Positions 5,297 to 56,648 of a stretch of DNA of 64,000 nucleotides are shown piece after piece. The notes under the pieces were generated by a model that saw nothing but the letters and a program-made list of their open reading frames with translations, made no database searches and was not told the origin of the DNA. Made by a program: the position numbers and the translations under genes. How positions within the stretch are numbered: position 1 is the stretch's first letter; every line of letters begins with the position of its first letter. The stretch lies in NCBI GenBank assembly GCA_944363595.1, contig CALVUN010000010.1:6852-70851 (forward strand), written 5' to 3'. Source of the stretch: an uncultured Bacilli bacterium. GTDB taxonomy: Bacteria > Bacillota_I > Bacilli_A > RF39 > UBA660.

Positions 5297-5360
5297 TATT
5301 CCCTTGACAAATACAAAAACAATTGCTAAAATATATTTTCAAAAAAAGGGGGGGATAAAA

Positions 5361-25408: not shown

Positions 25409-25485
25409 TGGCGTCCCAGACAGGATTCGAACCTGTGACCGCACGCTTAGAAGGCGTGTGCTCTATCCAGCTGAGCTACTAGAAC
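25409..25485 (-). tRNA. tRNA-Arg (anticodon UCU), with CCA encoded
   Basis: Clean cloverleaf on the minus strand: GTTCTAG acceptor stem, D-arm GCTC/GAGC, anticodon stem CACGC/GCGTG around loop CTTCTAA, T-arm ACAGG-TTCGAAT-CCTGT, then discriminator G and CCA. A TTGACA-18-TGcTATACT promoter lies at 25507-25536 on the minus strand. Confidence 0.85.
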
Positions 25486-31119: not shown

Positions 31120-31899
31120 ATGAAAGTATATATTGACCTAGTATTATTTCTAAATCTCATTATTGATCTTTTCCTCCTCATAGCGGTAACAATCATCCTA
31201 AAAAGAAAAACAAATATTAAACGCCTAATAATATCAGCCCTAATAGGAAGTCTAACCACTTTAACTCTTCTCATAAAACTAACTAATACATCTCTTTTCA
31301 TCATAAAGATAATCATATCTATTATTATGGTTATAACCGCTTTTCATTATCAAAACATTCGTTATACCATAAAAAATATAACCTATTTATATATAGTAAG
31401 CATAATTCTAGGAGGAGCCCTCTATCTATTAAATGTCCAATTTTTCTATCACCAAGAAGGACTAACTTTCTATCATGACGGTTTAGGATTAAATATTTTT
31501 GTAATTATCATTTTAAGTCCCATCATTATCTATTTATATTTAAAAAATATCAAAGAATTAAAAAACAACTATTCTAATTACTACTATCTAGACATATACT
31601 TAAAAGACCAATCAAAAATATCCCTAATAGGATTTGTTGATACGGGCAACAATTTAAAAGATCCTTATACCAAAAGTCCCATCATCATTGTAAGCAAAAA
31701 CAAAATCCCCCCCCAAGAAAATTACCTTTTAGTGCCTTTCCAAGTAATCAATCATCATGAATTATTAAAATGTATAAAGCCCCAAAAAATAATTATTGAT
31801 AACCAAATAATCACTACTAAAGCATTAATAGGTATTTCTGATAATAATATCAACATCGATGGTGTTGACTGTATCATTCATCCCGAATTAATAAAATAA
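31120..31899 (+). CDS. spoIIGA: sigma-E processing peptidase SpoIIGA
   Basis: N-terminal transmembrane helices (YIDLVLFLNLIIDLFLL) and the aspartic protease motif FVDTGNNLKDP. It lies directly upstream of sigE. It contains a C8 tract at 31697-31704. Confidence 0.85.
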   Translation: MKVYIDLVLFLNLIIDLFLLIAVTIILKRKTNIKRLIISALIGSLTTLTLLIKLTNTSLFIIKIIISIIMVITAFHYQNIRYTIKNITYLYIVSIILGGALYLLNVQFFYHQEGLTFYHDGLGLNIFVIIILSPIIIYLYLKNIKELKNNYSNYYYLDIYLKDQSKISLIGFVDTGNNLKDPYTKSPIIIVSKNKIPPQENYLLVPFQVINHHELLKCIKPQKIIIDNQIITTKALIGISDNNINIDGVDCIIHPELIK

Positions 31900-36327: not shown

Positions 36328-36370
36328 ACTATTAATATATGAAAAATTAAGTAAAAAGTCCCCAAAAAGC

Positions 36371-36591
36371 TTGTCAAATAATTAACAATATGGTAATATT
36401 AATATGTAAGATATAGAAAGGTAGGTGTCTCCCTCATGGATAAAGTAAATTATAATAAGTTAACTACAATGATACTAGGGGGGGGGGTATAAATTACCTA
36501 CTTTAAGGATAATTGATAATATAAACAGAAAAAAAACTACAAAGATTAAAGTTTAGCATATAACTAAGCTTATTTCTTTGTAGTTTTTTTC
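36371..36591 (+). repeat. copy A of a repeated roughly 170-nt micro-gene element (promoter, leader, 18-codon ORF, conserved terminator hairpin)
   Basis: TTGTCA-17-TGgTAATAT promoter at 36371-36399. Ribosome-binding site AGGTAGGTG. ORF at 36436-36492. Conserved hairpin AGTTTAG-N7-CTAAGCT at 36550-36570 inside terminator 36533-36591. Homologous to 47668-47868 and, decayed, to 53799-53888. Confidence 0.6.
36436..36492 (+). CDS. micro-ORF A: MDKVNYNKLTTMILGGGV (contains a G10 homopolymer)
   Basis: In frame with a homologous ORF in copy B. The G10 run at 36478-36487 encodes GGG. Confidence 0.4.
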   Translation: MDKVNYNKLTTMILGGGV

Positions 36592-36609
36592 TATAGGAGG
36601 AAGTAAAAG

Positions 36610-38325
36610 ATGAAAAAAATTACAATTATTTTAGGTATCATATTAGTTATTGCCTTAGTAATAAGTTCTTCATATGCCTTATTTTATCAAGAAAATACTT
36701 TAGATAATCAAGAAAGATATGCAACAGGAATATTAGATATTCAATTAGTTGAAGAAGAAGGCTACAATACAAGTATTCAATTAAATAATACTTTACCAAT
36801 GAGTGATGAAGAAGGAAAAAATACTACACCATTTAAGTTAAAATTAAAGAATGTAGGTAATTTATCATATACATTTGATTTAAAATTAATAAATACTGAA
36901 AATGAAAATAGTATAAATCCAGATTATATAAAAATAATGGTTGATAGTGATGAACCAACTACATATAGTAATTTAAATAATAATACTATTAAAACTAATA
37001 TAACTTTAGATCCAAATAAAGAAATAGTAATTGAAATAAGAGTATGGCTGAATAATAATATTTTGAATAGTGAAATTGGTAAAAAATTTAGTGGTAAACT
37101 TGTTGTAGATGGTGTAGGTAGTGAGTATGTTACTGAAAGTACAAAAACATTAGAAAAATTAAATTTAGTATCTAATATAGGAAATCCCGATTTTACTAAA
37201 ATAGCAAATACGGACGAAGGAATATATGCAGCAGAAGATGATTATGGCACAAGCTATTACTTTAGAGGAGCAGTAGAAAATAATTATGTTAAATTTGGTG
37301 AATATGCTAATGATATTTACTATGGATATAATACAGATAAAGTTAGTGCGACATCAGATTATTTACATAAAACATATAATTCTTTAGAAGAATGTCAAAA
37401 TGCAAGTGATTATAACAAATCATGTCAGCTTAGAATAAGCAAGGGAACTCCGATGTACTGGCGAATAATAAGAATAAATGGTGATGGAAGTATCAGAATG
37501 ATCTATGATGGAACAGAACCTCATGAAAATGGAGAGCAAACCTATGATAAAATTATTAATATGAGTGCTTATAATGAAATTGGAACTGATTTAAACTATG
37601 CAGGATATATGTATGGAAATAAATTCTTTGATTGGGATAGTAATTCTAGTTCTAGTGGACTTCTTGCGTATTACGATGAATTTACAGAAACAGGCTTATA
37701 TACATATCCAACTCCAATTGAAGGATCTTATTTTGAAAATATCAATGATAGTAAAGTAAAAAAAGAAATAGATAATTGGTATGCTTCTCATTTTACAAAT
37801 ACCCAATATGAAAAATATCTTGCTGATGTAATTTACTGTAATTATCGTAAGTCATATAAAAATTTTATTGATATAGCATACAAAGGAGGATTTGACTATT
37901 ATGACTTTAATTATAGTACTCCCTTTACAAGTTTAAAGTGTACAATTCAAAATGACCGTTTTACCGTAAATGATACTACTTTAGGTAACGGCGACTTAAC
38001 GTATCCAATAGGATTGATAACTATAGACGAAGTAAATATGGCAGGCGTTTTAGGTGTAGCTAATGGAAGAGCAGAAAAAAATTATTTAATGGGAACAGGT
38101 TTTTGGACAATGTCACCAAATGCTCAAATAATTTACATAGAATTATCAGACACAAACCATGAAGCAAATGTTGTTACATTACATATGGTTGACGTCAATG
38201 GTGCAACATCAAATGCTGTTTTCAATGATACTACCGGAGTGAGACCTGTAATTTCTATAAAAGGCGATACAAACTTAATAGGAACAGGTACTATCAATAA
38301 TCCATTCAGATTAGCAGAAGATTAA
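36610..38325 (+). CDS. large secreted protein with a SipW-cognate-type signal peptide and an N-terminal TasA/camelysin-like domain
   Basis: The N-terminus ...SSSYALFYQENTLDNQERYATGILDIQL fits the AxFxD...GTLDL pattern of SipW-dependent signal peptides. The following domain parallels TasA (NL.P..D....F.L.N.G.L). A roughly 350-aa C-terminal extension is unknown. Confidence 0.5.
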   Translation: MKKITIILGIILVIALVISSSYALFYQENTLDNQERYATGILDIQLVEEEGYNTSIQLNNTLPMSDEEGKNTTPFKLKLKNVGNLSYTFDLKLINTENENSINPDYIKIMVDSDEPTTYSNLNNNTIKTNITLDPNKEIVIEIRVWLNNNILNSEIGKKFSGKLVVDGVGSEYVTESTKTLEKLNLVSNIGNPDFTKIANTDEGIYAAEDDYGTSYYFRGAVENNYVKFGEYANDIYYGYNTDKVSATSDYLHKTYNSLEECQNASDYNKSCQLRISKGTPMYWRIIRINGDGSIRMIYDGTEPHENGEQTYDKIINMSAYNEIGTDLNYAGYMYGNKFFDWDSNSSSSGLLAYYDEFTETGLYTYPTPIEGSYFENINDSKVKKEIDNWYASHFTNTQYEKYLADVIYCNYRKSYKNFIDIAYKGGFDYYDFNYSTPFTSLKCTIQNDRFTVNDTTLGNGDLTYPIGLITIDEVNMAGVLGVANGRAEKNYLMGTGFWTMSPNAQIIYIELSDTNHEANVVTLHMVDVNGATSNAVFNDTTGVRPVISIKGDTNLIGTGTINNPFRLAED

Positions 38326-46900: not shown

Positions 46901-47665
46901 ATGGAAACATATTATTTAATCTTTTTCTTTATATTAGGATCTGCTATGGGATCCTTCTATCATGTAGTAGCGACACGTTTATCCAATAATGAGTCACTAG
47001 TAAAACCAGGATCCCATTGCCACTATTGCAATCATAAATTAAAATGGTACGAACTAATACCATTATTATCGTACATAATTCAAGGTGGAAAATGTCGTAA
47101 ATGCAAAAAACATATACCATTAAGTTACTTCATTATCGAATTAATAACGGGTATCATCTTTGCTGTATGTTATCATGTTTTTGATTTCAGTGGGGAATTA
47201 TTAATTGCCTTAATTTATACATCAAGTATGATAATAATTATAATAAGTGATATTGAATACATGATAATTTTAGACGAAGTATTAATCTTTGCTTCTGTTG
47301 CTATAACCATAATATATATTTTTTTCTTTGGTATAAATACAACTTTTTCTCATTTATTAAACGCCATCGCGGCCTTTGGATTAATGTATTTAATTAAAAT
47401 AATTGGTGATTTCATGTTTCAAAAAGAATCTCTTGGTGGTGGTGACATAAAATTAATGTTTTTATCAGGACTTGTCATAGGTTTACCACTAAGTGTTTGT
47501 ACAATTTTTTTAGCAACATTTATTGCCTTTCCTATTGCCATATATATATTATTAAGTAAAAAAGATAATCTAATCCCATTTGGGCCATTTTTAAGTATGG
47601 CATCAGTAATAATATTAATTTCTAAAATAAATATTCAAGATGTACTAGACTTTTTAATAAAATAA
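46901..47665 (+). CDS. prepilin peptidase (A24 family, ComC/PilD)
   Basis: N-terminal Zn-binding CxxC...CxxC (CHYCNHKL...CRKCKKHI), transmembrane helices, and the GGGD catalytic-aspartate motif. Confidence 0.85.
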   Translation: METYYLIFFFILGSAMGSFYHVVATRLSNNESLVKPGSHCHYCNHKLKWYELIPLLSYIIQGGKCRKCKKHIPLSYFIIELITGIIFAVCYHVFDFSGELLIALIYTSSMIIIIISDIEYMIILDEVLIFASVAITIIYIFFFGINTTFSHLLNAIAAFGLMYLIKIIGDFMFQKESLGGGDIKLMFLSGLVIGLPLSVCTIFLATFIAFPIAIYILLSKKDNLIPFGPFLSMASVIILISKINIQDVLDFLIK

Positions 47666-47667
47666 TC

Positions 47668-47868
47668 TTAATGTTAAATTAAAAATATGGTAATATATTA
47701 CGTCAGATCTTGAAAGTAGGGGCTCTTCCCATGCCGAAATTAAATTATAGTTTGTTAACTACAACAATACTAGGAATGGTATAAATTAACTACCTTTAAT
47801 ATAATTAATACAATAAAATTATAAAAATTAAAGTTTAGTATAAAGCTAAGCTTTTTTTTTAGCTTTAT
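47668..47868 (+). repeat. copy B of the repeated micro-gene element
   Basis: TTAATG-17-TGgTAATAT promoter at 47668-47696, ribosome-binding site AGTAGGGG, ORF 47731-47784, conserved hairpin AGTTTAGtataaagCTAAGCT followed by T9 at 47832-47860. Aligns with copy A along most of its length. Confidence 0.6.
47731..47784 (+). CDS. micro-ORF B: MPKLNYSLLTTTILGMV
   Basis: Homologous to micro-ORF A, with the same ribosome-binding-site spacing and frame. Confidence 0.4.
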   Translation: MPKLNYSLLTTTILGMV

Positions 47869-47957
47869 TGTATTTATATAGATTTCCACATAATTATATG
47901 TATTATATAGTTGTATTTTTTATAAAACATAGTATAATGTTTATAGGAAGTGATATT

Positions 47958-48377
47958 ATGTTTTATACATGGTTAATAATAATTCTTATTTTAAGTATTA
48001 TTGAAATAAGTACCACTAATCTTGTATGTATATGGTTTGTTTTAAGTGGATTATTATCTCTTGGAGTATCATTTCTTACAGATAATGTTTTTCTACAATT
48101 TTTTATATTTGTATTTTTTGGTATTATTTTTATGTTACTAACTAAGCCATTACTAAAAAAAATAAAAAATAAAGAAAGCACTAAAACTAATTTTGATCGT
48201 ATAATAGGTATGAAAGGTTTAGTTAAAGAAACTATACCTAAAGATGGCTTTGGAGTAGTGAAAGTTGATGGAAAATTATGGACTTCATATGCAAATGAAA
48301 AAATTGAAGAAGGAACCTATGTTAAAATATTAAAAATCAACAGTGTTAAACTAGAAGTTGAGAAATGGAAGGAGTAA
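47958..48377 (+). CDS. NfeD-family membrane protein (YqeZ-like, short form)
   Basis: Two or three transmembrane helices plus a C-terminal OB-fold (GMKGLVKETIPKDGFGVVKVDGKLWTSY). Directly upstream of a flotillin gene. Ribosome-binding site GGAAGTGA. Confidence 0.7.
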   Translation: MFYTWLIIILILSIIEISTTNLVCIWFVLSGLLSLGVSFLTDNVFLQFFIFVFFGIIFMLLTKPLLKKIKNKESTKTNFDRIIGMKGLVKETIPKDGFGVVKVDGKLWTSYANEKIEEGTYVKILKINSVKLEVEKWKE

Positions 48378-56429: not shown

Positions 56430-56648
56430 ACGTATTTTAAAGCAAATGAAAGAGACGATATAATAAGTTTTCTTAATAGAGAGTTCATGTATGGTGGAAA
56501 TGGACAAGAAAGTATTATATAGATCACTCTGGATGTTCTTATCTGATATTAGGATAAGACGGTAGTAATACCGTTATTAAATTAAGTAATAAGGTAGGAT
56601 GGTACCGCGTCAGAAACGCTCCTAAATAGGAGTGTTTTTTTTCATTTA
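56430..56648 (+). promoter_or_regulatory. T-box riboswitch leader (probable Ile specifier AUC) with intrinsic terminator
   Basis: Stem I elements (GA/K-turn region, AGAGAG box at about 56476). Candidate specifier AUC-A at about 56523. T-box sequence AAGGTAGGATGGTACCGCG at 56591-56609. Terminator ACGCTCCTaaatAGGAGTGT followed by T8 at 56614-56648. Confidence 0.6.

Follow-up and report, generated by a model that had tools for sequence, protein, structure and literature searches.

A promoter-leader cassette, probably of fast-evolving secreted-protein genes in uncultured gut Bacilli, and its putative orphan between pilD and nfeD

Introduction

In the genome of an uncultured member of the Bacilli, a prepilin peptidase gene (pilD) and nfeD are separated by a compact unit of ~200 bases in which a promoter, a Shine-Dalgarno sequence (SD), a very short open reading frame (ORF) and a hairpin ending in a run of uridines follow one another. 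We refer to this unit as copy B, to a related unit elsewhere on the same contig (CALVUN010000010.1) as copy A, and to the whole 64,000-nucleotide stretch of DNA that was analysed and that holds both as the window. The original prediction took the two copies to be instances of an autonomous micro-gene, perhaps encoding a toxin or a signal. This locus therefore raises the question of what the element is, and of what copy B in particular represents. The answer that we favour, with a probability of about one half on the sequence comparisons described here, is that the element is a promoter-leader cassette of fast-evolving secreted-protein genes and that copy B is an orphan of this cassette, its gene having been lost.

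Results

The element stands ahead of a family of hypervariable genes

Copy B is indeed a second instance of the element, with the same parts as copy A in the same order (promoter, SD, short ORF, hairpin and U-run; in B the ORF has 18 codons including the stop and the run is U9), and A and B share all five conserved blocks that had been named for them. Searched with a profile of the copies, the 64-kb window yields exactly two sites (E 1e-51 or better), the sole other match below 1e-3 being the palindromic terminator of A in reverse, and the resemblance of A to B is, judged by these scores, homology rather than chance. Three further variants were recovered, all from near relatives in which PilD is 93-95% identical: copy C on contigs L025, L026 and L027, with the near-identical C2; copy D on L051; and copy E on L050. 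D is complete and E shows the terminator alone, as its contig begins there. B is the most divergent copy (60-64% identical to C, C2 and D, 73% to A).

Every copy except B (A, C, D and E, four of five) is followed directly by a hypervariable gene that encodes a protein of 504-571 amino acids (aa). Copy A precedes the gene for a 571-aa protein, C lies between pilD and the gene for a 504-aa homologue (L025 11142-12656), and D and E precede genes for homologues of 564 and 561 aa, respectively, both of which are 59% identical to the window protein. In genomes that are otherwise ~95% identical, these large proteins share 33-37% identity, or 33-41% when close strains are compared, whereas the leaders share 63-81%. 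The ribosome-binding site (RBS) of the large gene is situated ~10-25 nt past the U-run in A, D and E, immediately 3′ of the terminator in the case of A, and in these three copies the distance between the terminator and the large gene leaves no space for a further promoter, nor was a credible one found there. The gene would hence be transcribed from the promoter of the element and through its terminator, which would make the element the leader of that gene. This association, in which four of five copies stand directly before one gene family and move with it, runs counter to the idea of an autonomous unit.

The homologue family is very large, with 5080 database proteins at E <= 1e-10, and a further member was located at L011 3777-5342, co-oriented with pilD. 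The 571-aa protein matches no Pfam or NCBIfam family above cut-off and has no relative in the PDB by sequence; some family members give a marginal score for DUF6273. An AlphaFold2 model of the 571-aa protein (pLDDT 70) consists of an N-terminal helix followed by beta-sandwich domains, and its matches are generic Ig-like or PapD-like beta-sandwiches, with no clear structural neighbour. The N-terminus of the large protein may resemble signal peptides of the SipW/TasA type, and it is plausible that this protein is secreted or surface-located and under diversifying pressure. We considered, and rejected, the possibility that the element is the template repeat of a diversity-generating retroelement: DUF6273 is a known target domain of such systems, but the element is located 5′ of the gene and is not homologous to the gene's 3′ end. 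When the element was compared with the 5′ end of the large gene, as a possible duplicate of it, ~67% identity over 27 nt was seen by eye and nhmmer found no match.

Copy B occupies the position of copy C in syntenic relatives

The relatives with 93-95% PilD identity, which are the members of the 90% cluster of the peptidase, are syntenic throughout the region, from the gene for pyrimidine-nucleoside phosphorylase through queA, dnaG, sigA and pilC-pilD to nfeD and murG. In L031-L036 the site between pilD and nfeD is "empty", with 61 nt; in L017-L021 it holds a 167-bp insert that is unrelated to the element; and in L025-L028 it holds the element, ~120 nt, the gene for the 504-aa homologue and a terminator, after which nfeD follows. 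Retention of the element in close relatives, which had been set beforehand as a test of the original prediction, is therefore not what these genomes display, since the site is empty, otherwise filled, or occupied by element and gene together. Copies B and C have homologous left junctions with the stop codon of pilD, so that B is the positional orthologue of C and the window would have lost the gene that C serves.

Beyond this cluster, relatives with 63-69% PilD identity keep pilC-pilD, followed by other downstream genes after gaps of 12-95 nt, and no element was found in those gaps. In L011-L013, which belong to the relatives with 65-69% PilD identity, a gene encoding a 521-aa protein without a Pfam match begins 12 nt past pilD with no leader; this protein is homologous to the 571-aa protein of the window (E 4e-59).

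The alternative occupants of the site have features of their own. The 167-bp insert (L017 10723-10889, also in L018-L021) ends in perfect 15-bp inverted repeats, GTTACTATTCACAGC and GCTGTGAATAGTAAC, which give it the look of a miniature inverted-repeat transposable element, and it has 0 matches in the window at <=3 mismatches. At L031 10780-10800, the pilD frame runs into a terminator of the GAACC..GGTTC type, such that the protein ends in DFLEPK, not in DFLVK or DFLIK; such an end could have arisen if element and gene were removed together by a deletion at short TTTT(T)AG repeats. The intergenic site between pilD and nfeD is a hotspot of insertion and deletion.

Neither copy A nor the 571-aa gene occurs in L017, L025 or L031 at the corresponding site, between a small minus-strand gene and queA. 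In the window, the segment 36363-38350 is flanked by a near-perfect direct repeat of 10-11 nt, which reads AATAATTAACAA where it falls in the promoter spacer and GATTAATTACAA where the gene ends. The empty sites (L025 1150-1345 and L026 1330-1575) contain one remaining repeat, together with a hairpin and T-run (ACAAGTTA..TAACTTGT) without anything upstream that they could terminate, and may represent deletions between the repeats, not sites that were never occupied. The cassette appears to have been gained, lost and moved between strains that are otherwise ~95% identical.

Anatomy of the intact copies

An intact cassette would open with a strong sigma-A promoter of the extended -10 kind; a very strong SD and an ORF of 17-18 codons come next, and after a spacer of ~40 nt the unit closes with a very stable intrinsic terminator, directly ahead of the RBS of the large gene. 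The -35 boxes of A, C and D (TTGTCA, TTGCCA and TTGAAA, respectively) are followed by a 17-nt spacer and TAATAT with an upstream TG, and a consensus promoter scan calls all three. The extended -10 element, TGgTAATAT, has the same letters in A, B, C and D. The mini-ORF is open in all four sequence variants, with 17, 18, 18 and 17 aa, and ends each time in GTA-TAA; the two indels within it are 3 nt each. The SD is positioned 7-8 nt ahead of the AUG in every variant, and its duplex with 16S rRNA is predicted at -15.6 to -16.3 kcal/mol in A, C and D, and at -9.2 kcal/mol in B.

In the minimum-energy fold of every copy, the SD and AUG are closed in a long-range helix, P1, in which the SD (GGUAGGU in A, GGUGGU in C and in D) has ACCUAC or ACCAC(C), just past the stop codon, as its partner, and in which a second helix joins the C-rich tract between SD and AUG to the G tract at the ORF end. 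A conserved 8-nt bulge, UAUAAAUU, separates the two helices. P1 has predicted energies of -23.2 (A), -21.9 (C) and -18.4 kcal/mol (D), equalled by 0-3 of 500 shuffles, compared with -10.5 kcal/mol in B, equalled by 28 of 500. The case for this helix is made by the energies of the individual copies and by matching one-base deletions in both strands, and not by statistics.

The terminators of A, C, D and E are two-tiered, with -18 to -24 kcal/mol and z scores of -6 to -8; for copy A the value is -24.1 kcal/mol (z -7.5, or -4.06 in a separate computation). The U-run that follows is U5 in C, U7 in A, D and E, and U9 in B. As expected for a leader attenuator, a short ORF with its SD precedes the presumed regulated gene in A, C and D, and an intrinsic terminator intervenes between ORF and gene in A, C, D and E; copy B has the leader ORF but no regulated gene 3′ of it.

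Copies C and D (L025 10837-10860; L051 166-215) carry an extra segment of 22-25 nt, GAAAAGTACAAAATAATTCGCAA, in the 5′ untranslated region (UTR), which A and B lack and which is tandemly duplicated in D. The minus strand of this segment has a promoter-like TTGCGA, 17/18 nt and TACAAT, directed away from the ORF.

Erosion of copy B

Copy B is the most eroded copy. It is weakened everywhere: in the -35 region, where its TTAATG matches the consensus at 3/6 positions and its promoter is not called by the consensus scan; in the SD and P1, as described above; in the G tract, which reads GGAATGG at 47773-47779; and in the terminator, whose outer stem is lost. The remaining hairpin, with arms spanning 47830-47854 and nine T's at 47852-47860, has a folding energy of -10.3 kcal/mol (z = -3.9 against shuffles). 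Since the G tract has become GGAATGG, the frame of copy B can no longer slip. The proposal that divergence between A and B is concentrated in the linkers holds only in part, because the ORF differs at 12 of 54 bases and by a 3-nt indel, with mostly non-synonymous changes; nor is B constrained to the same degree as the other copies, being instead the most degraded one.

Most likely, copy B now ends the pilC-pilD transcript and at most yields a short, poorly translated RNA, as its sequence suggests. Between pilD and nfeD of the window genome, the hairpin of copy B is the sole terminator-like one that we saw, which may explain why the hairpin part is still intact. In relatives, alignment shows a GAGAAC..GTTCTC terminator before the nfeD promoter, and this is missing from the window. 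The nfeD promoter stretch itself is kept in those syntenic relatives with covering sequence, whether the element is present or not, and sets the right-hand limit of the element. As a decaying orphan whose hairpin would end the pilC-pilD transcript, copy B is better not annotated as a small-protein gene.

A possible gate controlled by the reading frame

What the sequences show directly is how the element is built, that its copies are homologous, which genes they accompany, their synteny and the decay of B; transcription, translation, read-through and frame switching of the cassette are what we infer. At the end of the mini-ORF stands G10 in A, G11 in C and C2, and G7 in D; G10 is the only run of G or C of at least 9 nt in the window. 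In the annotated frame, hereafter the short frame, the ORF ends 37-48 nt short of the hairpin. With one G fewer, which is the equivalent of a +1 ribosomal shift on GGG-G, the frame in A, C, C2 and D remains open for 21-26 more codons and stops within the hairpin (the long frame). In A this stop is the UAG of AAAGUUUAG; in D it falls where the inner 3′ arm begins; and in C, C2 and, on our own reading, E, it is provided by the UAG of CUUUGUAG, within the 3′ arm. The other shifted frame closes immediately at the conserved AAT-TAA. Dinucleotide shuffles give the chance of a long frame open to the hairpin as 0.063 for A, 0.162 for C and 0.230 for D, probabilities that are not simply multiplied because the copies are related. 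A and C differ by 9 nt in the length of that stretch, and nowhere is the element more divergent than in the middle of it.

A terminator hairpin cannot form when a ribosome translates into it, as in the pyrBI and rph-pyrE attenuators of Escherichia coli. In the cassette, a ribosome translating the short frame would be released 37-48 nt upstream, the terminator would form and the gene would be OFF. Loss of one G, through slippage at the DNA or RNA level, or a +1 shift of the ribosome, would open the long frame; the ribosome would then enter and block the hairpin and the polymerase would read into the large gene, which would be ON. P1 would limit initiation to ribosomes that load during transcription and are thus coupled to the polymerase. 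That a translation-coupled gate is the working mode of the intact cassette can be proposed tentatively. That the gate is operated by frameshifting appears rather doubtful; a hypermutable G7-G11 run would then set the OFF or ON state, leading to heritable or stochastic switching of the pilC-pilD-linked family, with copy B as a fossil locked in the short frame. If true, this would be a new coupling of a homopolymeric tract to termination via the frame of a leader ORF, and it would be cheap to test. A search of the literature on the combination of homopolymeric tract, leader peptide and terminator found no precedent, and we know of no described phase-variation mechanism that unites a homopolymeric tract, a separate leader ORF and translation-coupled antitermination.

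Two candidate arrangements were examined and rejected. An internal promoter, GTTAACT/TATAAAT, with the G tract as its spacer would have its two boxes 19-22 nt apart, too great a distance for a promoter. An antiterminator formed from the anti-SD region and the 5′ arm of the terminator, sought by hand, would have 6-7 AU-rich bp in A, B and C and is not seen in D.

Apart from G10, the window holds just two runs of G or C that reach 7 nt, G7 at 5348-5354, in an apparent RBS (AAAGGGGGGGATAAAAATG), and C8 on the plus strand (G8 on the minus strand) at 31707-31714, which could be further slippage-prone sites. Four short contigs, L006, L028, L029 and L030, from different samples, stop inside the element, their end points falling past the promoter, in the 5′ UTR or 5 nt ahead of the G tract. 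Assemblies commonly break in this way at repeats or at heterogeneous homopolymers, and the breaks are suggestive only.

Observations that weigh against a regulated leader

Several findings speak against the cassette reading as a whole or against the gate. Only four independent sequence variants of the element are available, and family members in other lineages (L011-L013, and L052 at 46% identity) have no leader. Each of the five G tracts, as assembled, sets the ORF in the short frame, and no tract-length polymorphism was found among L025, L026 and L027, which derive from three samples and all carry G11. When a ribosome was mimicked by masking 28 nt of the ORF (at its start, its middle, its end or its stop), the terminator was unchanged in all four copies, and no pairing partner for its 5′ arm was found in these masked folds, that is, no antiterminator was detected; because there is no alternative pairing, regulated read-through is unproven and the terminator may be merely leaky. 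Column covariation in P1 (MAFFT alignment, four sequences) did not rise over the shuffle control (232/500). A consensus terminator scan called no hairpin in any copy, since its criteria demand at least 3 G-C pairs in an uninterrupted stem. In copy C, the ~120 nt past the terminator hold a TGtTATAAT box, seen by eye, with a -35 region too weak for the consensus scan, and the large gene may there be independent of the leader. C2 differs from C at 11 of 249 aligned positions, by inspection all in the 3′ UTR and terminator, and its terminator no longer folds as that of C does, which would be expected if the gate were dispensable there. Finally, the ORF of copy B is still open, which could signal a retained function.

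Alternative explanations

The alternative that survives best, though it is unlikely, is a structured non-coding RNA in which the ORF is incidental and the P1 hairpin, its bulge and an AU-rich apex are functional. Such an RNA could be a trans-acting small RNA, or its target could be RNA polymerase or a binding protein in cis, as with a put- or EAR-like antitermination element ahead of a terminator. It would account for conserved blocks, such as GGTATAAATTA, that disregard codons and span the stop codon, and for variable ORF columns that by our own count fall 7/8/7 over codon positions 1/2/3, with no third-position excess. The far greater stability of P1 compared with shuffles in A, C and D, the unit's own promoter and strong terminator, and the failure to find a ribosome-dependent alternative fold are in keeping with it as well. 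An incidental ORF would, however, hardly be expected to have a very strong SD 7-8 nt before a conserved AUG in every copy, or to stay open in 4/4 variants with both indels of 3 nt and a conserved UAA. The RNA itself has no Rfam match even at E <= 10, covariation between its columns is not significant, and no conserved pairing was found in the apical 45 nt.

A stand-alone small-protein gene, as originally envisaged, is improbable. Its product of 17-18 aa would be either a type I toxin or a secreted signal like SHP or XIP, and the large gene a mere neighbour or a co-transcribed partner. The micro-gene interpretation is partly supported, in that ORF, SD, AUG and UAA are kept in all variants, the orphan B included, that the indels within the ORF are in frame, and that there are three synonymous differences (CCG/CCA, TTA/TTG and GGG/GGA); occlusion of the SD by a 5′-3′ helix is also found in type I toxin mRNAs, and the peptides, with a basic N-terminus and a Gly-rich C-terminus, are what we take to be loosely SHP-like. 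It is the toxin or signal that finds no support. There is no codon-position bias, residues 2, 7, 8, 11, 12 and 16 change non-conservatively, and conserved blocks continue across the stop codon, so that the peptide sequence is not what is conserved. With grand average of hydropathy (GRAVY) values of 0.12-0.83 and Lys, Asn, Thr and Gly throughout, the peptides have neither the length nor the hydrophobicity of a membrane toxin. The copies have no antisense promoter that is common to all of them, and no divergent or antisense gene for an antitoxin RNA was found, the minus-strand promoter of C and D being directed away from the ORF and located in an insert that A and B lack. Nor is there a gene for a regulator of the Rgg/RNPP type (Rgg, PlcR or PrgX) beside either window copy, the neighbours being a 103-aa protein without a Pfam match and the 571-aa protein in the case of A, and the prepilin peptidase and NfeD in the case of B. 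The large gene, moreover, begins right past the terminator in A, D and E, and the element is tied to this one gene family in 4/5 copies.

A classical stalling attenuator, in which codon-specific or antibiotic stalling in the leader frees an antiterminator, is very improbable: the order promoter, short ORF, terminator, gene does match known attenuators, and A, C and D hold 2-3 successive GGG codons, expected to be rare at 28% G+C, near the ORF end, but the terminator is unaffected by the 28-nt masks and its 5′ arm is unpaired elsewhere in four copies, the best candidate pairings on our own inspection are the 6-7 AU-rich bp not present in D, 37-48 nt separate the stop codon from the hairpin, and the downstream gene is neither a biosynthetic nor a resistance gene.

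Distribution of the element and features of the window

The element was also sought more widely. At gathering thresholds, Rfam models applied to the whole window gave a T-box and a tRNA elsewhere and none at the element, and at E <= 10 on copies A and B they gave noise only. The T-box leader (56437-56626, plus strand, 99 bits, over the gathering score) and the tRNA-Arg(TCT) (25409-25485, minus strand) are both unrelated to the element. An exact-pattern scan of one genome per GTDB species gave 5 chance matches, which lack the GGTATAAATTA block and have profile E > 0.01; scans of JGI metagenomes gave 0 matches with the first pattern and 13, by chance only, with the second; and a scan of IMG/VR viral contigs gave 7, likewise chance only. 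This verdict of chance is backed by the nhmmer profile wherever the profile was run. No match to the element was found by blastn among PLSDB plasmids, and exact-protein look-up of the window PilD and flotillin returned no record. As far as the data reach, the element is confined to one species-level lineage of uncultured gut Bacilli with 28% G+C, which is also the G+C content of the window.

The coordinates of both window copies and of the adjacent genes are given in Table 1. The gene next after nfeD encodes an SPFH/flotillin-like protein.

Table 1. Features of the two window copies of the element and of the genes beside them (positions are those of the window)
Feature	Position	Strand	Details
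Copy B, whole unit	47668-47868	+	between prepilin peptidase gene and nfeD
Copy B promoter	47668..47696	+	TTAATG (47668-47673), 17-nt spacer, TGgTAATAT (47688-47696)
Copy B SD	47713-47722	+	AAAGTAGGGG, read in sequence
Copy B SD and C-rich tract	47713..47730	+	CTCTTCCC, 5′ strand of the SD-occluding helix P1
Copy B mini-ORF, ATG..TAA	47731-47784	+	MPKLNYSLLTTTILGMV and stop; 17 codons + stop = 18
Copy B anti-SD	47790..47797	+	CTACCTTT, 3′ strand of P1, just past stop codon
Copy B intrinsic terminator	47830..47860	+	AAAGTTTAG, 7-nt loop, CTAAGCTTT, into U9
Prepilin peptidase gene (pilD)	46901-47665		PF01478 and PF06750
nfeD	47958-48377		downstream neighbour of copy B
nfeD promoter	47911..47938	+	TTGTAT, 16 nt, TATAAT; outside the element
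Copy A, whole unit	36370-36592	+	160/220 = 73% identical to copy B
Copy A promoter	36371..36399	+	TTGTCA, 17 nt, TAATAT, TG upstream; called by scan
Copy A P1 hairpin	36417..36504	+	around the mini-ORF; -23.2 kcal/mol, 0/500 shuffles as good
Copy A SD		+	AAAGGTAGGTG, part of P1
Copy A C tract	36428-36435	+	part of P1
Copy A mini-ORF	36436-36492	+	MDKVNYNKLTTMILGGGV and stop; inside P1
Copy A G10 tract	36478-36487	+	part of P1
Copy A conserved bulge		+	TATAAATT, part of P1
Copy A anti-SD	36496-36504	+	ACCTACTTT, part of P1
Copy A terminator	36529..36590	+	two-tier hairpin ACTACAAAG..AAAGTTTAG / CTAAGCTT..CTTTGTAGT, then U7
571-aa secreted-protein gene (putative)	36610..38325	+	behind copy A; start codon 19 nt past the U-run

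Discussion

The original observation of copy B is confirmed, and its wider meaning would lie in the family to which it belongs: a conserved promoter-leader-terminator cassette that is packaged with a very fast-evolving secreted-protein gene in uncultured gut Bacilli. Parts of this arrangement recall several known systems. Type I toxin mRNAs, such as those of hok, aapA1 and tisB, occlude their SD by 5′-3′ pairing, and the element resembles them in its tiny ORF, strong promoter, own terminator, buried SD and AUG, multiple copies and patchy occurrence among strains. It is unlike them in that the peptide is not hydrophobic, no antisense RNA gene was found and the element is tied to a large downstream gene.

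The nearest parallel described for a variable surface protein switched by a terminator in its leader is cwpV of Clostridioides difficile (PMC5914908, citing Emerson et al. 2009). This gene has an upstream sigma-A promoter and is turned ON or OFF by a terminator in its leader; the switch is heritable and stochastic, through DNA inversion by RecV between inverted repeats. The element is similar in having a terminator in the leader of a variable surface-protein gene, although its own switching is what we infer, and different in having no invertible segment, the candidate switch being the G tract in the leader ORF.

The G tract itself brings to mind contingency loci. These carry homopolymeric tracts, such as the poly-G and poly-C tracts of Neisseria, Campylobacter and Haemophilus and the poly-A tracts in the vlp promoters of Mycoplasma. 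With tracts of at least 7 nt taken as the mark of such loci, the element offers G10, G11 and G7, and in B a tract broken to GGAATGG; the G7-G11 runs occur in a genome of 28% G+C and 5′ of a hypervariable family. The arrangement of a conserved 5′ cassette before divergent genes is also that of Mycoplasma vlp/vsp. To our knowledge, the tracts described so far lie either within the coding sequence that they regulate or between the boxes of its promoter, and not in a separate upstream mini-ORF with a terminator.

In layout, the element also resembles the attenuators of pyrimidine genes in E. coli. The frameshift in rph-1 of E. coli K-12 was reportedly found by Jensen in 1993 to move the stop codon off the attenuator and to lower pyrE expression, a logic that the short and long frames of the element would share, and the pyrBI operon is said, from the work of Turnbough and co-workers, to have a translation-coupled attenuator. 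Like rph-pyrE and pyrBI, the element has an upstream ORF and an intrinsic terminator before the gene, and the proximity of the ribosome to the hairpin would govern read-through. Unlike them, with their UTP-dependent polymerase pausing and their long rph or 44-codon pyrL ORF, it has a 7-11-nt G tract between the frames, a variable secreted protein downstream and an SD held in a long-range helix. The element would be a lineage-specific form of a known device, a leader ORF and terminator ahead of a regulated gene, with the unusual twist that a G tract divides the short frame from one that would invade the terminator.

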